Shown here in pieces: positions 1,476 through 17,831 of a stretch of 17,831 bases of DNA. Each line of letters opens with the position of its first letter. Within the stretch, counting starts at the first letter, position 1. The notes under the pieces were generated by a model. That model was not told where the DNA came from. It did not search any database and worked only from the letters and a program-made list of their open reading frames with translations. A program made the position numbers and the translations under genes. Source of the stretch: a virus (lineage: Duplodnaviria; Heunggongvirae; Uroviricota; Caudoviricetes); IMG/VR virus record IMGVR_UViG_2695420624_000004; one strand, written 5' to 3'.

Positions 1476-1508
1476 TAAATAAAACAACGGGCGTGTTATA
1501 CGCCCGTT
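1476..1508 (-). terminator. icd Rho-independent terminator
   Basis: AACGGGCG-TGTTATA-CGCCCGTT hairpin, followed on the minus strand by GTTTTATTTAT, about 25 nt after the icd TAA stop. Confidence 0.7.
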
Positions 1509-1531
1509 TCAATATTTAACACATGGAGAGA

Positions 1532-1696
1532 TTACATGTTTTCGATGATCGCTTCACCAAACTCTGAACATTTCAGCAGCTTAGCGCCTTCCATCAGACG
1601 TTCGAAGTCATAAGTTACGGTCTTGGCATTGATTGCGCCTTCCATACCTTTAACAATCAGGTCAGCCGCTTCAGTCCAACCCATATGGCGCAGCAG
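1532..1696 (-). pseudogene. icd: Displaced 3' fragment of isocitrate dehydrogenase (icdC-type), last 54 codons plus stop
   Basis: Minus-strand translation reads [54 protein letters not shown], the Icd C-terminus. Homology stops abruptly at about 1696; upstream is unrelated AT-rich DNA. The 165-nt length matches the e14-type integration site in icd. Confidence 0.85.
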
Positions 1697-2396: not shown

Positions 2397-3518
2397 TTAG
2401 TCATCAACCGCGACTCCTGCACAATCATGGGCTATTGCCAGCAATTGTTTTTTAATTGCTTTAGCATCTACCGTCATATCTACTGTAGCAAAATGGATCT
2501 TATGTCCCTGAGTGACAACATACTCATTAAGCATATAGCCAACAGCTGGATGAAGTAGAAGACCAGCGGCATTGAGCGAAAGCGGATCCGTCTTGTTCTC
2601 CTGTGTTCTAAGGTAGGTATATAGCTGATAAATATAGCCATTACGTAGTGATTGCTCCCGATGCCAACCCTTTGTCAGAATCGAATTAAATTTGGTATCG
2701 ATAATAATACGCCGCTGGGCAGTCTTGTGTTCCAGAATAATGTCTGACTTCATTGTCGGGAAAATCTCTGCACTACCTGCACTTTGATCGCTCAACGCCC
2801 ATTTCAGCTCTTTCCCTGCAGAGACCTGCCAAGTTGTTTTGGCAAGGTGTACACGATATAAGCCAGCGATACCTTTTTCAAATAGTCTTCTCATCCAGTA
2901 AAGGTTATTTGAGGGCGCAGGTAAAAGATATTGGCCTTGATCTTCGGTCGGCATCAGCAGTTCAAAAGCTAATCGTGCGGCATCGACCATCGGTTTATCT
3001 GCGGCATCATGGCGTCCAAAACGCCACACTGAGGGTAATTCGCGGGGGGCAGGATATCCTCCATTTATCCCCTCACGGCGAAGTGATATTGCCATAAAAT
3101 GGCAATCTGCCGCCAAAGACGGTTTCACTATGATTGAGGCCAGACGTTCTAACGCACAGCGAACATAGCGATTTCGGGGGGTGTTGAGGGTTATGTCTTG
3201 AAAATGGCAGGCAACCTGTCCCCGTTCCAGCAGTTGATGACTGGCAGTATACAGTATGTCAATGCGCCCTCTCACCCGGTTCAGGGCCGCATGACAAGTT
3301 TGGTATCCCATATTTAAATTGCGACGTCGGCGCAGCGTAATCTCATGAAGGAGGATTGTCGCCACCAGGTCGGGGATTTCTGCTGGGTTATCTTCTACTG
3401 CGATCTGATTGCGCCCTAACTGGCGAAACAGATCTGAAGCGTACAGCATCAGCATCCAGATATTTCGCATGGGAATACGTGATGCTGTATGTTGCTCACT
3501 CCCGGTTATTGTCGTCAT
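2397..3518 (-). CDS. McrC-family nuclease subunit of a Type IV (modification-dependent) restriction system
   Basis: 373-aa ORF. N-terminal PMRNIWMLMLYA resembles the McrC N-terminus; the IIIDTKF...QSLRNGYIYQLYTYL block matches the McrC PD-(D/E)xK nuclease region. Start ATG overlaps the upstream stop as ATGA. Confidence 0.8.
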   Translation of the reverse strand: MTTITGSEQHTASRIPMRNIWMLMLYASDLFRQLGRNQIAVEDNPAEIPDLVATILLHEITLRRRRNLNMGYQTCHAALNRVRGRIDILYTASHQLLERGQVACHFQDITLNTPRNRYVRCALERLASIIVKPSLAADCHFMAISLRREGINGGYPAPRELPSVWRFGRHDAADKPMVDAARLAFELLMPTEDQGQYLLPAPSNNLYWMRRLFEKGIAGLYRVHLAKTTWQVSAGKELKWALSDQSAGSAEIFPTMKSDIILEHKTAQRRIIIDTKFNSILTKGWHREQSLRNGYIYQLYTYLRTQENKTDPLSLNAAGLLLHPAVGYMLNEYVVTQGHKIHFATVDMTVDAKAIKKQLLAIAHDCAGVAVDD

Positions 3519-5497
3519 TTTGCTAATAACACTTTTCTGGCTTCATCGACTTTATTTGGAGCATCGAACCAATATTCGGCGAGCAAAGGGCAGATCTCTG
3601 TATCAACGACTTGTTCATACCAAGCCTGGGCATCGTTGATTTTTTGGCCGATAGCTGGGGTGACATAGCTGTGACCGATACAAAACTGTGGTCCTAAGGT
3701 AACATCTTTTGCCAGCATATCGTTTAATACCGTCAGTCGAGATTTGATGAATGCTAACATGTCAAAATCAATTGCGTAATTATAATTTACCCAGTTTCTC
3801 CACGCGTCATTAAAAGCTGGCTTTAGATCGATAAACGCGAAACGACGGCGCAGCGCTAGGTCAAGTAGTGCGAGTGAGCGGTCTGCAATATTCATCGTAC
3901 CGATGATATATAGATTCTCAGGAATGTATATTTTTTCATCAGCATTTTTAGGATAGGAAAGAGATAATGCCTCAGTCGGCGTGCGTTTATCTGCTTCCAT
4001 CAACGTGAGTGTTTCACCGAAGATTTGCGCCGGATTGCCACGATTAATCTCTTCAATTATCACCACATATTTCGAGGTAGGATTATTGACTGCAGTTTTG
4101 ATTGCATTTACAAAAGGTCCATCAATTAGCGTCAATTGCCCTTCTTTACCTGGACGCCAGCCTCGAATAAAGTCTTCGTAAGAGAGGTTCGGGTGAAATT
4201 GCACCGCGCTAATACGCTCAGGTGCTTTTTCTCCCATCAAGCAGTACGCCAGACGTCGCGCTAACCAAGTTTTTCCAGTTCCGGGTGGTCCTTGTAATAT
4301 CAGGTTTTTCTTGTCGATCAGGCGCTGAAGTGTGAGTTGGATCTTAGCCTCTTCCAAGAAACAGCCATCCTGCACCAGATGACTGATGTCATAAGGAACG
4401 TGGGTGAGTTTTGGCAACAGCGCACTCTCTTCGACAGTTTCCTCAGTTATCGTCTGGGATTCGTTTTTCTCAAAATTCAGGTATTCATAATTTCCGGACT
4501 CGAGGGACTTTAACTCATCATCATTGCATAGTTTCTGTAGATAAAAGTAGATTGAGCTTGTAACAGTTTTGCTCTCAGGATGCTCTACCTTGAATACGTC
4601 CAAGTAGTTTTCTTCCAACTCCGAAGCAGTGAAATAAGGGCCATTTTTTTTCAGGCATAACGCCTTAATTTTATTCAGTAAAGAGGCTTTCCACGTTCTA
4701 TTTGCCACCTCATCTTTAGACTGGCTAAGATCTGTATTCCACGCTGATAAGGAAAGTTCTGGGAAAGAATGAACCGGATAGTTTGGTTGGGTAAAGACCT
4801 CGTTCAGCGCCCGCATAAGACTCAGGTAACTTTGTCCACTACAGCGACCTTTTGCCCCGTTTTTAATGATCTTAATGTTTAACACTGTCTGAATGTAATA
4901 CTGCGACTGGCTATCTAAAGTGGGGTAGAACCAAGGACGGGTCCAGTACAACCCCATGGTGAGATTCCAACCGACATTCATTACTGTAGAAGCGATGTCA
5001 TATGCGGCAGTGAAGTCTGCAGAGTTAGTATTCTGGTTATCCGCAAAGATCATTGCCTGTGAGAACATTTCCCACAAGCATTCAATGTCATTAGGGTCGC
5101 GTGACTTTTCATAACCAAAGAACCAAGATTTTTGGTTATTCAACAGAGGGATTCCGGCAAAGGAGTCAGGAATCGGTTCGTTCACGCCCAACAAATTCGC
5201 TAGCTTGGCAGCAATAATTTTGCGATTGCTGTCGGTCAAGTTACGATTGAACAAGCCCATAGTAGTAAACGGACAAATGTCTTTTAAGGGAAAGATCTCT
5301 CCCATAATAGATTTGTCCTGCAGATGGGACATTCCTTCCACACCCGAGGCAATTAGATGAATACCTTTGACTAATTCATCTCTACGATTTCGCCAAGTCA
5401 GTAACGCGTTGGCAAAAGCCTCATAAAAACTAGCCCAAGCAAACTTGCCATCATGTTCTGCTGTATCCACGGGAACTCCATTATACTTGTTGAGCAA
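3515..5497 (-). CDS. McrB-family AAA+ GTPase with an extended, uncharacterised N-terminal region of about 400 aa
   Basis: Walker A LILQGPPGTGKTW and a C-terminal IIGTMNIADRS...ALRRRFAF block typical of McrB. The annotated start is TTG; an in-frame GTG at 5470 with GGAG 5 nt upstream and a TATAAT just before it is a plausible alternative start. Confidence 0.85.
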   Translation of the reverse strand: MLNKYNGVPVDTAEHDGKFAWASFYEAFANALLTWRNRRDELVKGIHLIASGVEGMSHLQDKSIMGEIFPLKDICPFTTMGLFNRNLTDSNRKIIAAKLANLLGVNEPIPDSFAGIPLLNNQKSWFFGYEKSRDPNDIECLWEMFSQAMIFADNQNTNSADFTAAYDIASTVMNVGWNLTMGLYWTRPWFYPTLDSQSQYYIQTVLNIKIIKNGAKGRCSGQSYLSLMRALNEVFTQPNYPVHSFPELSLSAWNTDLSQSKDEVANRTWKASLLNKIKALCLKKNGPYFTASELEENYLDVFKVEHPESKTVTSSIYFYLQKLCNDDELKSLESGNYEYLNFEKNESQTITEETVEESALLPKLTHVPYDISHLVQDGCFLEEAKIQLTLQRLIDKKNLILQGPPGTGKTWLARRLAYCLMGEKAPERISAVQFHPNLSYEDFIRGWRPGKEGQLTLIDGPFVNAIKTAVNNPTSKYVVIIEEINRGNPAQIFGETLTLMEADKRTPTEALSLSYPKNADEKIYIPENLYIIGTMNIADRSLALLDLALRRRFAFIDLKPAFNDAWRNWVNYNYAIDFDMLAFIKSRLTVLNDMLAKDVTLGPQFCIGHSYVTPAIGQKINDAQAWYEQVVDTEICPLLAEYWFDAPNKVDEARKVLLAK

Positions 5498-5830: not shown

Positions 5831-6415
5831 TTATTCCATAACAGGGATTGCAGGCCACTCAATATCAGGTGCAGTTGATGTATCAACACGATTCAGCAAC
5901 ACCCGATACTTCTTCCAGGCTTCAAGCAACGAGGTTTCTTCCTCCGTTGCGATTTCCAGATCTGCAGCATCCTGAAGCGGGGCAATATGCTCACTGGCTA
6001 CCTGCATCAGGCTGTTTTTTGTTTCTTCCGCCTCCCGGATCCGGAACAGTTTTTCTGCTTCCGTATCCTTCACCCAGGCTGTGCCGTTCCACTTCTGAAA
6101 CTCCCCTTCCGGGGATAACCAGGTGATATTTTCCGGTAGAGGTCCGAGTTCAGAAATAAATAACGAGTCGCCGGAAGCCACGTCATAGACGGTTTTTCCC
6201 CGATGATCTTCAACGAGATGCCACGATGCCTCATCACTGTTGAAAACAGCCACGAAGCCTACCGGAATATCTGGCGGTGCAATATAGGTACTGTTTGCTG
6301 GCAGACCTGTATGAGGCGGAATATATGCGTCACCTTCACCAATAAATTCATTAGTTCCGGCCAGCAGATTATAAATTTTTATGGTCCGTGGTTGTTCACT
6401 CATTCTGAATGCCAT
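5831..6415 (-). CDS. tfa: Tail fibre assembly protein (lambda Tfa-like)
   Basis: 194-aa ORF ([24 protein letters not shown]...WPAIPVME), near-identical to lambda Tfa as I remember it. Start overlaps the stf stop by 1 nt (TAATG). Confidence 0.9.
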
Positions 6416-11168: not shown

Positions 11169-12695
11169 TCAAAAATAAACCTCACCATCAACCATATATT
11201 TGAGAGTACTTATCGCCTGCTGGGCGGATATTGTTTTCATTAAAGGATAGTGTTTAAAAACAATGCCATTCATAAAATAGATATCACAGGTTTTATTATC
11301 TGTATTGATTATGATTTTTTCGAATGTTTTATAGGCAAGTGTACGACATAGCTCTCGCCCATTTTTACTGGTTAAGTCAATAGCATGAAAATCACCAAGT
11401 GAACTCACCGCTTTACTCTTCAAAGTTTTTAATGATACAGAAGCCCTTCGTAATTCCTTATCTAATACTCTGATTTTTTCTGCTATAGCGGTAACTTCAG
11501 GCGCAACAGATAATGCAGCAATTAAATTATTAATTTTCATCTGGAGCTCAATAATTTTCAACTCTAAAGTTTCATTAGCATCTTTCTTGTTTTCAACTGG
11601 TTGGATTTTACTACAATTAAAAAGCAACTCATTAATGATATTATAATCAACCAAATCTCTCTTTATTGATGGCCTGTCACATCGATGCAGTCTTCTCATC
11701 GGACAAACATAATAGCCATGCAAACTTCCAGATACCGCATGAACAATCATGGTATTACCACAAGCCTCGCACTTCATAACTGTTCGAAGTAGATTTATCA
11801 ACATAGGATTTTTGCTACTATTGCTAATACCAAAAGGTGCCAACCGAATTTCCTGCACAGCGTAAAACAAATCATCTGATATGACTCTGGGATAATAGCC
11901 AGCGATTTCACTTATTCCTTTACCTCTTGCACGATATGAAGGTACGCATATACCTATCAGAGCTTTATTCGCTAATAATTTTTCAATTACAGAAGGTCCC
12001 CATGCACTTTCTTTTCCTGAGAAATTCTTTACAGCATGATCATTTAAATACTTGGCTATTGCATTCAATGAGCGCCTTTCCATCCTGAGTTTAAAAATTA
12101 GCTCAATAGTTTTCACCCTGTCGGGGTCTGGAACAAAAGCCGTTCTTTTGTCATCCAATGAGAGCCATCTCGGACAAGACGCCGTCATAATCGTGCCTGA
12201 CTCCAGTGCATCCTGCCGTTTTTTCTTCCATGATAATTTAACCCGACTTGACTTTATCTCGCTTTCTTCATTTGCCCTTTGTGCTATAAGTATGGCTTTT
12301 ATTAATGAATATGGCTCATTCAATGAGTCAATATTATAGACTGTATTATCGCAAAGAGTTATAACATCAATACCGTGATTCAAAATCAATTTCAGACGCT
12401 CAATCGCCTCACCGACTTTTTCTCTTGAAAGTCTGTCCAGACTTTCAACTAACAATGTAGTCCCTGGCAATATATAACCATGTTCTATAGCATCTAAAAA
12501 TTCCGAAAAAGCTCCTGATTGTGCATGCTTTCCATTGAATGCGCTTAACCCCAAATCTTCATACGTTACGGTATCAAGGTAATAATCACTATTTACCTTT
12601 AGCCATTCAGTAATAAGCCTTCTCTGGCGGTTTAATGAATCACCAGACATCTGACTTGGTGATGAAAATCGCATATATGCTATGGCTTTTTTCAT
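11169..12695 (-). CDS. ybcK: Large serine recombinase (YbcK-like)
   Basis: 508 aa. N-terminal resolvase-type catalytic domain (AIAYMRFSSPSQ with the presumed serine nucleophile), recombinase domain and a Cys-rich zinc-ribbon region (CEACG...CPMRRLHRC). Length and position next to emrE match DLP12 ybcK. Confidence 0.8.
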   Translation of the reverse strand: MKKAIAYMRFSSPSQMSGDSLNRQRRLITEWLKVNSDYYLDTVTYEDLGLSAFNGKHAQSGAFSEFLDAIEHGYILPGTTLLVESLDRLSREKVGEAIERLKLILNHGIDVITLCDNTVYNIDSLNEPYSLIKAILIAQRANEESEIKSSRVKLSWKKKRQDALESGTIMTASCPRWLSLDDKRTAFVPDPDRVKTIELIFKLRMERRSLNAIAKYLNDHAVKNFSGKESAWGPSVIEKLLANKALIGICVPSYRARGKGISEIAGYYPRVISDDLFYAVQEIRLAPFGISNSSKNPMLINLLRTVMKCEACGNTMIVHAVSGSLHGYYVCPMRRLHRCDRPSIKRDLVDYNIINELLFNCSKIQPVENKKDANETLELKIIELQMKINNLIAALSVAPEVTAIAEKIRVLDKELRRASVSLKTLKSKAVSSLGDFHAIDLTSKNGRELCRTLAYKTFEKIIINTDNKTCDIYFMNGIVFKHYPLMKTISAQQAISTLKYMVDGEVYF

Positions 12696-12880
12696 GGTGA
12701 CACCTGCTAAAGTATGCTTTTATAAACCTTAGTGGTGAGATATGATTTTTGTTTAATTTTTATTTAAAAAGACAATTAAGGTCACATTATCTTGAATATA
12801 CAACAATAATCGTATTGCAATTTTCTTACACCATAATCTTGAAAGCACAAAAGAATGAATAAAAACTAAAGACATTAACA

Positions 12881-12919
12881 AAAAGCATAAAACGAGGCCC
12901 ATATAAATATACGAGCCTC
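12881..12919 (-). terminator. Possible emrE terminator (weak hairpin plus T-rich tract)
   Basis: GAGGC/GCCTC 5-bp stem with a long AT-rich loop, followed on the minus strand by GTTTTATGCTTTTTG, about 30 nt after the emrE stop. Confidence 0.3.
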
Positions 12920-12950
12920 CATATTTTAGTCGTTTAAAAACAAATTATTT

Positions 12951-13283
12951 TTAATGTGGTGTGCTTCGTGACAATAAATTAATAACCAACACACCGGCAC
13001 AAATCAACATCATGCCTATAATGGCTGGCAGGTCCAACCGTTGGCCGAAAAATCCCCATGATAGTAAGCTAATCAGGACAATACCGACTCCTGACCAGAT
13101 AGCATAAGCAATCCCTGTAGGAATATAAGCCAGCGTCTGAGCTAATAACCAGAATGATGCACAATAACAAATAATTGTACCAACAGATGGCCATAACCGT
13201 GTAAAACCTTCTGAAAACTTCATTAAGGTTGTACCAATGACCTCTGCAAGTATTGCACCACCAAGATAAATATAAGGATTCAT
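12951..13283 (-). CDS. emrE: SMR-family multidrug efflux protein EmrE (110 aa)
   Basis: MNPYIYLGGAILAEVIGTTLMKFSEGF...LLSRSTPH is essentially the EmrE sequence. The ORF track's 128-aa version starts 18 codons upstream; the true start is the ATG at 13283. Confidence 0.9.
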   Translation of the reverse strand: MNPYIYLGGAILAEVIGTTLMKFSEGFTRLWPSVGTIICYCASFWLLAQTLAYIPTGIAYAIWSGVGIVLISLLSWGFFGQRLDLPAIIGMMLICAGVLVINLLSRSTPH

Positions 13284-13350
13284 AGCATATTCTTTCCTGT
13301 TCAAACTGGAGAGAATTGTACTACAGTTTGAACTCAACTCACCTGTTTCA

Positions 13351-13653
13351 TCATTGTGTACCCATTGATGTTCTTTTATATACCCTCAATACCCGTTTCA
13401 TCGCGGCACTCTGGCGACACTCCTTAAAAATCAAATTCGTGCTCACCTTTCCTTCCCATTCTTCTCTGGTAGCGAACCGATAATACACCGTTCGCCAGAC
13501 CTTACCATCAACGACTAGGATTCCTGCCCGCGCCATTTTAGCCGCAGCCTGATTTATGCTGGTTACCGTTGCGCCTGTTACCGCGGCAACGTCCTGCGCA
13601 CAGAATTTCTTATGAGTCCCCAGGTAATGAATAATTGACTCTTTGCCCGTCAT
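13351..13653 (-). CDS. ren: Ren-like protein
   Basis: MTGKESIIHYLGTH...AAKMARAGILVVDGKVWRTVYYRFATREE is near-identical to lambda Ren. Start overlaps the P stop (ATGA). Confidence 0.85.
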   Translation of the reverse strand: MTGKESIIHYLGTHKKFCAQDVAAVTGATVTSINQAAAKMARAGILVVDGKVWRTVYYRFATREEWEGKVSTNLIFKECRQSAAMKRVLRVYKRTSMGTQ

Positions 13654-14351
13654 ACCCTTGCTCCTTTCAGCCCAAACTTAGCTTTGATTTCTGCGATCTT
13701 CGCCAGAGCCTGTGCACGATTTAGAGGTCTACCGCCCATGACAGGAAGTTGTTTTACTGGTTCAGGTATAGCCTCACCACGGTTAATTCGTGCGGTCATA
13801 CAGGACAGTTCATCGGCAGCCTTGCGCCGTAATTCCGCGTCAGTCAACGCATTGGCCCGCATGTTCTGATACAGGTTGGTAACCAGCCAGTAGTGCGCGT
13901 TTGATTTCCACGGATAAGACTCTGCATCCGGATACAGCCCGCGCTTCCGGCAATACTCGTAAACCATATCAACCAGCTCGCTGGCGTTTGGCAGCCCGGC
14001 GGTAACGGATGCTTCTTCCCGGCACCAGGCGACAAACTGCCCGGGTGATGGCAGGAATGGTCGATTCTGCCGACGGGCTACGCGCATTCCAGCGTTAACC
14101 TGTTCCATTGTGGTGATCCCGTTTTCCCGAAAAGCCAGCACCCACTGGCGGCGGATTTCGTTCAGTTCATTCTGGTCACGGTTAGCCAGGCTCGCCGGGA
14201 AAGTTGCCAGTAACTGGCTGAACACACCGTTGATGATCTGCGCTACCTGCTGTACCTGTGGCTTTTCGTCGTACTGTTCCGGCATGTTGTTGGCGATCCG
14301 ACGCATCTGCTCACGGTCAAAGTTAACCATCTGTGCGGCGATGTTTTTCAT
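13650..14351 (-). CDS. P: Replication protein P (lambda P-like, full length, 233 aa)
   Basis: MKNIAAQMVNFDREQMRRIANNMPEQYDEKPQVQQ... near-identical to lambda P over the full length. Confidence 0.9.
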   Translation of the reverse strand: MKNIAAQMVNFDREQMRRIANNMPEQYDEKPQVQQVAQIINGVFSQLLATFPASLANRDQNELNEIRRQWVLAFRENGITTMEQVNAGMRVARRQNRPFLPSPGQFVAWCREEASVTAGLPNASELVDMVYEYCRKRGLYPDAESYPWKSNAHYWLVTNLYQNMRANALTDAELRRKAADELSCMTARINRGEAIPEPVKQLPVMGGRPLNRAQALAKIAEIKAKFGLKGARV

Positions 14352-14584
14352 AGATCCACCCCGTAAATCCAGTCAGTGTTTGTCAGGTCGAGTTTTGGTT
14401 TGCCGACTGTCACGCCAGCCTGTTGCTTGTTCCGGTTGATTTCGAGCTGGGTCCACTTGTCGCGGAGTTTGGCCGGACTCAGCACGTTACCGGACCAGAA
14501 GTTGTCCTGGCAGGCCCAGCGGAACAGTACACACATGTCGCGGTGGTTACGTCCATCACGTTCACGCATCAGACGGATATCGTT
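14348..14584 (-). pseudogene. O: Replication protein O, C-terminal ~78 codons only
   Basis: ...[59 protein letters not shown]...[13 protein letters not shown] matches the lambda O C-terminus. The first 16 codons of the ORF-track call are antisense to exo and not O. Confidence 0.8.
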
Positions 14585-15238
14585 ACCGGGATCGACGTGA
14601 GAGCTGTCGAACAGGGGGATGATGCGTGGCACAAATTACGGCTCGGCGTCATCACCGCTTCAGAAGTTCACAACGTGATAGCAAAGCCCCGCTCAGGAAA
14701 GAAGTGGCCTGACATGAAAATGTCCTACTTCCACACCCTGCTTGCCGAGGTTTGCACCGGTGTGGCTCCGGAAGTTAACGCTAAAGCACTGGCCTGGGGA
14801 AAACAGTACGAGAACGACGCCAGAACCCTGTTTGAGTTCACTTCCGGCGTAAATGTTATTGAATCCCCGATCATCTATCGCGACGAAAGTATGCGCACCG
14901 CCTGCTCTCCCGATGGTTTATGCAGTGACGGCAATGGCCTTGAACTGAAATGCCCGTTTACCTCCCGGGATTTCATGAAGTTCCGGCTCGGTGGTTTCGA
15001 GGCCATAAAGTCGGCTTACATGGCCCAGGTGCAGTACAGCATGTGGGTGACGCGAAAAGATGCCTGGTACTTTGCCAACTATGACCCGCGTATGAAGCGT
15101 GAAGGCCTGCATTATGTCGTGGTTGAGCGGGATGAAAAGTACATGGCGAATTTTGACGAGATGGTGCCGGAGTTCATCGAAAAAATGGACGAGGCACTGG
15201 CTGAAATTGGTTTTGTATTTGGGGAGCAATGGCGATGA
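14585..15238 (+). pseudogene. exo: Lambda exonuclease (Exo/Red-alpha) lacking its first ~9 codons; joined head-to-head to O'
   Basis: From [41 protein letters not shown] to the C-terminal FVFGEQWR this is near-identical to lambda Exo. The N-terminal 54 codons of the ORF-track call are antisense to O. No ATG start at the joint. Confidence 0.8.
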
Positions 15239-15393
15239 CGCATCCTCACGATAATATCCGGGTAGGCGCGATCACTTTCGTCTACTCCATTACAAAGCGA
15301 GGCTGGGTATTTCCCGGCCTTTCTGTTATCAGAAATCCACTGAAAGCACAGCGGCTGGCTGAGAAGATAAATAACAAACAGGAGGATATATGA
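15235..15393 (+). CDS. Small 52-aa ORF, lambda orf60a-like, coupled to exo
   Basis: [55 protein letters not shown] overlaps the exo stop (ATGA) and its stop overlaps the next ATG (ATATGA). Not in the ORF track because it is under 60 aa. Resemblance to lambda orf60a is from memory. Confidence 0.5.
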
Positions 15394-16454
15394 GTCAGGT
15401 TGGTAATCATTCATTCGAATTTCCGGCATCGCAAGGTGTACAGGGTGGTACTGTTACACTCTTCCTTACCATACCAGGAAGATCGCTGGCTCGTTTCCTC
15501 GCTTCAGATAATTACGGCCATACACTGGAACGCTCTCAGCGAGAAATTAATCCAAATCGAGTACGAAAATTTTTAAATTATCTCACTAACGCAGACTCAA
15601 GAAATGAGCCTTTTATCATTCCCCCTCTCGTAGGTAACTGTGATTCGAATATAGAATTTGTACCGTTTGGCAACACAAATGTTGGTATAGCCAGAATTCC
15701 CCTCGACGCCGAAATAAAACTTTTTGATGGTCAACATCGTGCAGCTGGCATTGAGATATTTTGCCGAAGTTCCCCATCAACGCTCATGGTTCCCATGATG
15801 CTTACAATGAATCTGCCGCTAAAAACCCGGCAGCAGTTCTTTTCGGACATAAATAACAACGTTTCTAAGCCATCAGCGACCATCAATATGGCGTATAACG
15901 GCCGGGATGATATTGCTCAGGGAATGATATCCTTCCTGACCCAACATACTGTATTTGCCGATATAACCGATTTTGAACACAACGTAGTGCCATTAAAAAG
16001 TAATATGTGGGTGAGTTTCAAGGCACTCACTGATGCAACGTCAAAGTTCGCTAGGAACGGCAATCAACAACTTGAAATGGGATATATAGAATCTGTCTGG
16101 GAGGCATGGATTACACTAACTCAGATTGACTCAATCCGACATGGTGTACACCACGCTACGTACAAGCGCGATTATATTCAGTTCCATGGAGTAATGATTA
16201 ACGCTTTCGGTTTTGCGGTTCAACAGATGATGGTTAATCATTCCATCGCAGAAATAACTTCTATGATCGAAAAACTATGTGCAACTACCAGCTCTGCAGA
16301 AAGAGAGGATTTTTTTCTGATGGATAACTGGGCGGGGATCTGCACGAAAGCCAGCCAGGAAAAACTATCTGTTATTGCCAATGTGGCAGCGCAGAAAGCA
16401 GCAGCAAACAGACTGATACAAGCTTTTACCAAAGGAAGTCTGGAAACAACTTAA
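15390..16454 (+). CDS. DGQHR-domain (DndB-like, ParB/Srx-type) protein, 354 aa
   Basis: Literal motif FDGQHRAAGIE at about residues 113-123, in the position expected for DndB/DGQHR proteins. Translationally coupled to the upstream small ORF and followed by a terminator. Confidence 0.7.
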   Translation: MSQVGNHSFEFPASQGVQGGTVTLFLTIPGRSLARFLASDNYGHTLERSQREINPNRVRKFLNYLTNADSRNEPFIIPPLVGNCDSNIEFVPFGNTNVGIARIPLDAEIKLFDGQHRAAGIEIFCRSSPSTLMVPMMLTMNLPLKTRQQFFSDINNNVSKPSATINMAYNGRDDIAQGMISFLTQHTVFADITDFEHNVVPLKSNMWVSFKALTDATSKFARNGNQQLEMGYIESVWEAWITLTQIDSIRHGVHHATYKRDYIQFHGVMINAFGFAVQQMMVNHSIAEITSMIEKLCATTSSAEREDFFLMDNWAGICTKASQEKLSVIANVAAQKAAANRLIQAFTKGSLETT

Positions 16455-16521
16455 TGAATCAACATTGTCTCATATCAGCATGCTGTACGGCGTCTTTAAG
16501 GAACGGTGAGCATGAAAAACA

Positions 16522-16542
16522 AAATCATCATGGAGCTACAGG
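16522..16542 (+). terminator. Rho-independent terminator downstream of the DGQHR gene
   Basis: GGAGC-TACAG-GCTCC hairpin immediately followed by TTTTTTATT. Confidence 0.5.
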
Positions 16543-16607
16543 CTCCTTTTTTATTATTCGCATTCACCCTCAAGCGTATTAACCAACAATTCAGGGATTA
16601 ATGAAAG

Positions 16608-16826
16608 ATGGCAGACATCATTGATTCAGCATCAGAAATTGAAGAATTACAGCGCAACACAGCAATAAAAATGCGCCGCCTGAACCACCAGGCTATATCT
16701 GCCACTCATTGTTGTGAGTGTGGCGATCCGATAGATGAACGAAGACGCCTGGCCGTTCAGGGTTGTCGGACTTGTGCAAGTTGCCAGGAGGAGATCGAAC
16801 TTAAGAACAAACAATGGGGACTGTGA
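16608..16826 (+). CDS. TraR/DksA-family C4 zinc-finger protein (lambda Orf73-like)
   Basis: 72 aa with a CxxC...CxxC arrangement (HCCECGDP...GCRTCASC) typical of TraR/DksA C4 fingers, in the exo-xis accessory region where lambda encodes its TraR-like protein. Confidence 0.7.
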   Translation: MADIIDSASEIEELQRNTAIKMRRLNHQAISATHCCECGDPIDERRRLAVQGCRTCASCQEEIELKNKQWGL

Positions 16827-16873
16827 TGGCTTCAAAGCAGCAAATTTCAACATCGTCCAACTGAGGTGTAAAA

Positions 16874-17113
16874 ATGTTCAGAATCATTTTTCCTAACACC
16901 TGGTACGTCGACCACCACGGCACTCCCTGCAAAATCCTGCGTTCTACCCACAACAAAGTTCACTACATCCGAAAAGGCAGAACATGTATCGCCAGCATGT
17001 TCCGCTTTAATCATGACTTTGAACCTGTGAATAAAGCTGATGCAGATCGGATAGCAGAAGAGATCGAAACGGCAGAACACATTAAGAAGTTACGTGCCAT
17101 ACGCAGGAAATAG
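16874..17113 (+). CDS. Hypothetical 79-aa protein (exo-xis accessory region)
   Basis: ATG preceded by GAGGTG at good spacing. Basic C-terminus. Co-directional with the TraR-like gene. No family recognised. Confidence 0.5.
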   Translation: MFRIIFPNTWYVDHHGTPCKILRSTHNKVHYIRKGRTCIASMFRFNHDFEPVNKADADRIAEEIETAEHIKKLRAIRRK

Positions 17114-17162
17114 AAAAATTGATAAATTCAATACTGCATTACTCAGCATTAAATTTATCTCT

Positions 17163-17831
17163 ATGTGAACCGCCCCGGGTTTCCTGGAGAGTGTTTTATC
17201 TGTGAACTCAGGCTGCCAGATCATCGTTTCCGATGGAAGCATAATAAGCTTTTTCTGCTTCTGCCGGAGGAGTATGGCCCAGCCTTTCCAGCAATCGTCG
17301 ATTGTTATACCAGTCCACCCACGTGAGTGTGGCCAGTTCCACTTCTGCACGGTTTTTCCAGCTCTTACGGTGTATTACCTCCGCTTTGTAAAGACCATTG
17401 ATGCTCTCCGCCATCGCGTTGTCATACGAGTCGCCTGTACTTCCTGTTGATGCCAGTAATCCGGCTTCCTTAAGCCGCTGTGTGTAGGCCAGCGATACAT
17501 ACTGAGAACCTTTATCACTGTGATGGACCGTGCCGGACGGTCGACGGGCCCATAACGCCTGCTCCAGTGCATCCAGCACGAATGTCGTTTCCATGGACGA
17601 TGAGACCCGCCACCCCACGATGTATCCGGCAAACACATCAATGATGAACGCCACATAGACGAAGCCCCGCCATGTGCTGACGTAAGTAAAATCAGCCACC
17701 CACAGCTGGTCAGGTCGTTCTGCCACGAACTGACGGTTTACGCGGTCGCCTGCGGCAACGGCTTTCCGGCTGATGGTCGTACGGACCTTTTTACCCCGGA
17801 GAACACCGGCAAGTCCCATAACCGCCATGAG
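17163..17831 (-). mobile_element. IS3-family insertion sequence (IS629/IS3411-like end), truncated by the window edge
   Basis: Terminal inverted repeat beginning TGAACCGCCCCGGGTTTCCTGGAGAG at 17163, about 45 bp from the transposase stop. Only the orfB-proximal end is present. Confidence 0.75.
17208..17828 (-). CDS. IS3-family transposase OrfB (DDE integrase core), partial; N-terminus outside the window
   Basis: 206 aa of open frame running to the window edge. Contains IS3-family DDE-core-like blocks (HSDKGSQY, DNAMAES). Confidence 0.8.
   Translation of the reverse strand: MAVMGLAGVLRGKKVRTTISRKAVAAGDRVNRQFVAERPDQLWVADFTYVSTWRGFVYVAFIIDVFAGYIVGWRVSSSMETTFVLDALEQALWARRPSGTVHHSDKGSQYVSLAYTQRLKEAGLLASTGSTGDSYDNAMAESINGLYKAEVIHRKSWKNRAEVELATLTWVDWYNNRRLLERLGHTPPAEAEKAYYASIGNDDLAA

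Follow-up and report, generated by a model that had tools for sequence, protein, structure and literature searches.

The window, which is the whole 17,831-nucleotide stretch of DNA analysed here, raises the question of how the 3' end of a lambda-type O gene came to lie head-to-head with an exo gene that has lost its beginning. Between 13351 and 16454 the genes ren, P and the O fragment (O') are read on the minus strand, and the truncated exo (exo'), orf60a and a DGQHR gene follow on the plus strand (Table 1). The joint between O' and exo' is very probably the scar of an internal illegitimate deletion, of the short-homology and RecA-independent type, in a lambdoid prophage at icd. Since the gene order and the divergent orientation are those of lambda (int-xis...exo on one side, O-P-ren on the other), an internal deletion is the simplest reading. 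In the intact phage, a pL operon (N...gam-bet-exo-orf60a) and a pR operon (cro-cII-O-P-ren) would have diverged from the immunity region. The deletion would have joined codon 10 of exo to codon 222 of O with the divergent orientation retained. It would have taken both early promoters, the repressor, Cro, N, CII/CIII, Kil, Gam, Bet, the DNA-binding domain of O and the ori, and induction, replication and host killing would all have been removed in one event. The joint could have formed in a single step at a 2-bp TA (or at the imperfect CGT(T)A), or by nested steps.

Table 1. Positions in the window of the joint, the genes around it and the open reading frames that cross it
Feature	Position	Strand	Description
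ren	13351..13653	-	full length
Replication protein P	13650..14351	-	full length, 233 aa; PF06992, E 8e-62
O'	14348..14584	-	lambda O N222-L299 + stop, 78 codons; C-terminal, P-interacting part
Mechanical ORF, 94 aa	14348..14632	-	O' + 16 codons of antisense exo', to GTG
Mechanical ORF, 271 aa	14423..15238	+	54 antisense O' codons, continuing in frame into exo'
Native CGTTACCGG in O antisense	14485..14493	+	pattern match
Deletion joint	14584..14585		2-bp TA common to the O-antisense and exo homologies
exo'	14585..15238	+	lambda exo codons T10-R226 + stop; frame intact
orf60a homologue (DUF1317)	15229..15393	+	start overlaps exo' stop
DGQHR/DndB-family gene	15390..16454	+	PF14072, E 3.8e-46

The joint and the interval missing from it

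In a blastn comparison, lambda 40555-39348 (ren, P and the 3' end of O, minus strand) aligns with window 13378-14585 at 93.9% identity and lambda 32002-31194 (exo from codon 10, and orf60a) aligns with window 14584-15392 at 97.0%. The two alignments abut, and their overlap is the 2 bases TA (T14584 and A14585). A longer match at the joint, CGT(T)A, is imperfect. When the sequences are read side by side, with a slash for the breakpoint, O antisense GATATCGTTA/GCC and exo GCAGCG/TACCGGG give GATATCGTTACCGGG in the window. With longer flanks, the O antisense reads ...GGATATCGTTA/GCCCACC, the exo side reads ...CTGCAGCG/TACCGGGATCG, and the window reads ...GGATATCGTTACCGGGATCG. At the protein level (tblastn), residues 221-299 of lambda O are found at 14587-14351 with 96% identity, and residues 10-226 of lambda Exo at 14585-15235 with 97.7%. 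The preliminary description placed the end of about 78 C-terminal O codons on the minus strand near 14584 and the beginning of exo, at about codon 10 on the plus strand, at the same point. Both placements prove to be exact, with N222-L299 at 14348-14584 and T10 at 14585. Neither homology extends further, and a full-length frame cannot be recovered for either gene.

A probe of 120 nt centred on the joint was searched against 5426 complete E. coli genomes. The complete joint is present in 23 of them (22 at 100% and 1 at 96.6%) and also in 4 IMG/VR contigs. Thousands of the other E. coli genomes match only one half of the probe, either O or exo. The O-only matches cover bases 1-61 and end at probe base 61 (window 14585), and the exo-only matches cover bases 60-120, beginning at probe base 60 (window 14584). 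Because these ends coincide with the joint, the breakpoint is independent of lambda as the reference. The idea that the O breakpoint is a natural mosaic boundary between O alleles was rejected, since the O genes of lambda and of the E94 prophage are homologous across it; their homology runs from nucleotide 434, which lies some 230 nt further upstream. By eye, no palindrome, insertion sequence end or IS200/605-type TTAC target fits all of the joints described below, and Rfam has no RNA family at or near the window joint. A second copy of CGTTACCGG arises at the joint, at 14581-14589. It and the native copy make up a direct repeat of 9 bp with a spacing of 96 bp (2 matches against 0.05 expected by chance), and the predicted product of slippage between the copies is CAGCACGTTACCGGGATCGA.

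The gap in lambda coordinates is about 32003-39347, which is 7.35 kb. The leftward side of the gap held exo codons 1-9, bet, gam, kil, cIII, ea10, ral and sieB, the immunity part held N, nutL, pL/oL, rexB, rexA and cI, and the rightward part held pR/oR, cro, nutR, cII and O codons 1-221. The four ori iterons (lambda 39034-39118) lie inside the deleted part of O, so the ori is gone along with the initiator. Measured against the E94 prophage, the nearest relative at this chromosomal site to remain intact, the gap is 5,153 bp and the overlap is likewise TA. DNA of the deleted interval, whether from lambda or from E94, has no match anywhere in the window. The window has no protein match to Bet, Gam, Kil, CIII, N, CI, Cro or CII, or to RexA/B, SieB, Ral, Ea10 or the E94 repressor, Cro and YdaT proteins, and none of the plausible window ORFs tested has an HTH or repressor domain in Pfam. 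These DNA, protein and Pfam searches bear out the earlier claim that everything between O and exo is absent, with neither a repressor nor an initiator left. None of the elements of an inducible prophage (repressor, cro, early promoters, N, O with ori) is found in the window. The remnant should be unable to be induced, to replicate or to kill its host, and the lack of a repressor, promoters, N, O and ori would explain the inertness of the element at icd.

One step or several, and breakpoints used more than once

Two points stand against a simple deletion. An overlap of 2 bp says little about mechanism, and a single random event leaves the recurrent breakpoints described below unexplained. It is possible, although rather unlikely, that the window joint was made in two or more steps, which would give the same end sequence as one step. 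The first step, a 450-bp deletion, would have used the 5-bp repeat TACCG to join bet (GCGTTACCG/AATGG) to exo (GCGTACCG/GGATC). The second would have used the 5-bp repeat CGTTA, with O antisense ...ATCGTTA joined to the remnant of bet, ...GCGTTA. Each step would thus have 5 bp of homology in place of 2 bp. A relevant joint occurs in 13 genomes, in a prophage integrated at att-lambda (ybhC). It consists of ren', 14-24 nt of bet and exo', the extra bases being the bet fragment, and its exo breakpoint is exactly that of the window. This ren'/bet/exo' joint was located in FDAARGOS_1248 (L006 8980-9010) and in NCTC9100 at 3005345, and NCTC9100 holds the window joint as well. The left sides of four joint types (window, ren'/bet/exo', RM10410 and FT130) all end in CGTTA, which also favours formation in steps.

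The intermediate that such a route predicts, bet'/exo' with intact upstream bet (ACCGTAATCATCCGATCTGCGTTACCGGGATCGA), gave 0 matches in exact-pattern scans of metagenome and genome contigs and is absent among 6 IMG/VR loci. With a megablast probe for this intermediate, the two halves of an intact bet-exo merge into one match. The exo' of the ren'/bet/exo' joint is no closer to that of the window than lambda exo is, since it differs at 16 of 655 positions and that of lambda at 14. The two joint types are also in prophages at different att sites. An intact exo allele with GTTACCGGG, which would make the microhomology 5 bp, was considered and rejected; in an IMG/VR scan the motif occurs only in two joint types and never in an intact exo.

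Several other joints spanning this region were found in related prophage remnants. K-12 has a P'/exo' joint, the DLP12 of E200086 has a P'/bet' joint that is present in 7 genomes, and 2015C-4136CT1 has a joint between P' and the region upstream of gam. In FT130, the DLP12 at argU (L017 4985-5010) has 46 codons of O' joined to orf60a'. In RM10410 (L016 16951-16970), O' ends at exactly the same base as in the window and is fused to window 15265 inside orf60a; exo' is deleted entirely, and the joint is unique among the 5426 genomes. FT130 and RM10410 have the orf60a breakpoint in common. The FT130 joint could derive from one of the RM10410 type, through slippage of 96 bp from one CGTTA repeat to another.

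The sites in exo (GCG/TACCG), O antisense (ATCGTTA/) and orf60a (GGGTA/GGCGCG) each occur in two different joints, and the re-used breakpoints are spread over prophages at three att sites (icd, argU and att-lambda). This re-use is the sole element of the locus that is slightly surprising. It may tentatively be taken as a sign that the breakpoints are non-random, through either a hotspot mechanism or a traceable chain of nested deletions at the 5-bp repeats CGTTA, TACCG and GTAAT. In a chain of this kind, joints would pass between co-resident prophages via flanking homology. If true, this would provide a base-resolved genealogy of the dismantling of lambdoid prophages. The alternative joints could serve as lineage markers of prophage decay in E. 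coli. A literature search on exoD/peaD found no description of these joints.

The element at icd and its relatives

In the genomes with identical sequence, the element sits between ycgX-iraM and icd. The xis/int genes adjoin icd and a duplicated icd' fragment is present at the far end of the element. The attachment site is icd, which is the e14/phage-21 site, and not the argU site of DLP12. Carriers of the element at icd include NCTC9100 and Z1323HEC0011 (loci L001 and L015). The element is not DLP12, with which it has only the ren-emrE-ylcJ-ybcK module in common. The duplicated icd 3' fragment is at window 1479-1690 and is 92.9% identical to icd of E94. At the same end, mcrC and an AAA-ATPase (McrB-like) gene form a pair at 2397-5497. 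Decay is heavy in the rest of the element, which has no Q, lysis or head genes and retains only tail-fibre pieces, a large serine recombinase and the mcrBC-like pair. An IS3-family element with rve domains is located at 17166-17831, between the DUF4222 gene and xis. This insertion is present in Z1323HEC0011 and absent in NCTC9100, where xis/int follow directly. The xis/int genes of NCTC9100 are intact, so excision of the remnant may still be possible.

The DLP12 prophage of K-12 also has a deletion of the immunity region that leaves a truncated replication gene (peaD) head-to-head with a truncated exo (exoD). It is located at argU with intD, whereas the window element is at icd. The preliminary description proposed the K-12 exoD-peaD region as a reference for the window breakpoint, but on alignment it is a separate and larger deletion (13961 to 14959). 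The K-12 joint lies between P codon ~130 and exo codon ~135 (window-equivalent 13961/14959), so that O is wholly gone and both P and exo are much shorter than in the window. The K-12 joint is found in 306 genomes, compared to 23 for the window joint. K-12 DLP12 also carries the ren-emrE-ylcJ-ybcK module, which matches window 12501-13564 at 96.8% and has Pfam YlcJ and large serine recombinase domains. The module encodes an SMR efflux pump and a large serine recombinase and lies at window 12753-13653 and 11169-12695. Since it is common to the icd-site element and to DLP12 at argU (96-97%), it has moved between prophages at different att sites.

The E94 prophage (NZ_CP119740, locus L014) shares the icd site with the window element. 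Its right arm has the same genes as the window element (int-xis-DUF4222-TraR/DksA-DGQHR-DUF1317-exo) and is 98.6% identical over window 14584-17165, and its far end likewise has mcrBC-like cargo and icd'. E94 keeps bet, gam, kil (Kil-like), an S24 repressor, cro, a gene with a YdaT domain, and complete O and P genes. The nin region, Q and the lysis genes are likewise retained. In the O/P allele of E94 the identity is only 90% (window 14023-14585), and the emrE-ybcK module is absent. Against the early region of lambda, the window has 94-97% identity in exo', orf60a, O', P and ren, which follow the lambda order. Compared to lambda, the window element is missing 32003-39347, has the DGQHR gene in place of orf63/orf61, and has an int/xis that targets another att site.

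These relatives bear on whether the joint could be a fusion of two elements, in which a DLP12-like left arm (O'-P-ren-emrE-ylcJ-ybcK) was joined to an icd-site right arm (exo'-orf60a-DGQHR-...-xis-int). The module on the left arm is otherwise typical of DLP12 at argU (96-97%), and E94, the relative at icd, differs in its P allele (90%) and lacks the emrE module, both of which are consistent with a fusion. However, the order and orientation of the genes are those of a single lambdoid genome, and the sharing of modules can be put down to the homologous-exchange mosaicism of lambdoid phages, with no need for a fusion at the joint. To fuse an element at argU with one at icd would also take a large chromosomal rearrangement, and the flanking chromosome is collinear. 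A fusion is therefore very unlikely.

The genes left at the joint

The exo' gene differs from lambda exo by 14 nt and 5 amino acids. The substitutions (T101I, N168D, I189V, S198N and I202M in lambda numbering) are not at catalytic or 5'-phosphate residues. It keeps R28, L78, D119, E129 and K131, among which R28, D119, E129 and K131 are the catalytic and 5'-phosphate residues of lambda Exo. The YqaJ domain (PF09588) is matched over profile positions 2-149 of 150 with an E value of 3.7e-29 and a score of 102.4 bits (cut-off 22). The gene has lost its native ATG, ribosome-binding site, promoter and partner Bet. In lambda the ATG of exo overlaps the bet stop and is coupled to it, and this coupling is lost in exo'. 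No ATG, GTG or TTG with a Shine-Dalgarno match was found in frame before exo' near the joint, and the first in-frame ATG is exo codon 53. PGAP calls exo' as a 219-aa 'lambda exonuclease family protein' CDS from ATC at 14579. With codons 1-9 and bet gone, exo' is not a complete gene with its own start and ribosome-binding site; the CDS is a beheaded fragment that should be marked as a pseudogene. A consensus scan, which is a weak test, found no sigma-70-like site on the plus strand of 12810-16064, in agreement with the earlier remark that the exo-side genes have no obvious promoter. Overall, promoter-like sites are no more numerous than in shuffled sequence.

O' does not have the N-terminal DNA-binding (origin-binding) domain of lambda O or the ori iterons, although its C-terminal homology to lambda O is 96% over residues 221-299. 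It has no Pfam match. PGAP/RefSeq describes it as 'replication protein, incomplete, missing N-terminus', that is, an incomplete pseudogene, and the incomplete O beside an exonuclease-family CDS is thus already flagged in the RefSeq annotation. P and ren are intact but are without promoter pR, and P is also without its partner O. On the other side, the DGQHR gene substitutes for lambda orf63-orf61, exactly from the ATG of orf63, and is translationally coupled to orf60a. An ATGA overlap links both orf60a and the DGQHR gene to the gene upstream of each, so the two belonged to the lost pL operon. The absence of native promoters for O', P, ren, exo', orf60a and the DGQHR gene, and of a start codon for exo', suggests that these genes are largely silent and decaying passengers. 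Further decay can be seen among the carriers, as RM10410 has also lost exo' and the DGQHR gene of Z1323CEC0014 has a frameshift. A DGQHR/DndB-like gene in an operon without a promoter is relevant to judging it as an active defence gene. The preliminary description considered the ORF at 14423-15238 to be a chimera of antisense O and exo, and this is the case, with 54 antisense O' codons and 217 exo codons. This ORF is not a natural gene.

What stands against silence, as far as can be read from the sequence, is that the exo' frame is open with all of its catalytic residues and is annotated as a CDS. Exo' could be a working exonuclease with a substituted 5' end and a non-canonical or upstream start, forming an accessory or defence operon with orf60a and the DGQHR/DndB-like gene. 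The 217-codon open frame, the retained R28, D119, E129 and K131, the complete YqaJ domain, the PGAP call and the identical sequence in 22 genomes are all in favour of this. However, there is no canonical start with a Shine-Dalgarno match, no promoter-like site and no Bet partner. Exo' is also dispensable, as it is deleted in RM10410, and the DGQHR gene is frameshifted in one carrier (Z1323CEC0014). The exo' genes of the carriers are nearly identical, with patchy differences in the single diverged copy, and this near-identity is probably a result of recent common descent and not of selection. A working exo' is therefore highly improbable. The chance that the joint is an artefact of assembly or sequencing is negligible, because independent assemblies of 22 complete genomes contain the identical joint, and it recurs in one diverged copy (96.6%) and in 4 IMG/VR contigs.

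Bobay and colleagues are said to have described in 2014 how prophages decay and become domesticated, with functions lost by deletion and accessory genes retained. In the grounding, decay and domestication of prophages, induction, replication and killing are lost by deletion while accessory genes are kept (Ramisetty & Sudhakari 2019, PMC6379469). The internal deletion in the window is the same concept, and the window is one instance of it with base-level breakpoints. The joint is a specific case of well-known prophage decay with nothing conceptually new, and beyond annotation it matters little.

Several further observations concern the carriers and the flanks of the joint. Z1323CEC0014 (L007) has the same joint with ~60 substitutions relative to window 13400-15400. 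These are confined to the lambda-homologous ren-P-O'-exo'-orf60a part, and the emrE/ybcK and DGQHR genes are nearly identical. This pattern of substitutions resembles gene conversion to either side of the joint, with other resident lambdoid prophages as the donors. An Rfam match to IS009 (RF02111) is present inside the tail-fibre assembly gene at 5874-6072 on the minus strand, with 214 bits against a gathering score of 117. Downstream of the DGQHR gene, homology to lambda resumes at 16474. Window 16474-16803 is 95.8% identical to lambda 30747-30418, an unannotated interval between ea22 and orf61, and spans the upstream region and most of the TraR/DksA-family gene of the window (16608-16826). 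From this match, lambda appears to carry a remnant or homologue of the TraR/DksA-family gene.
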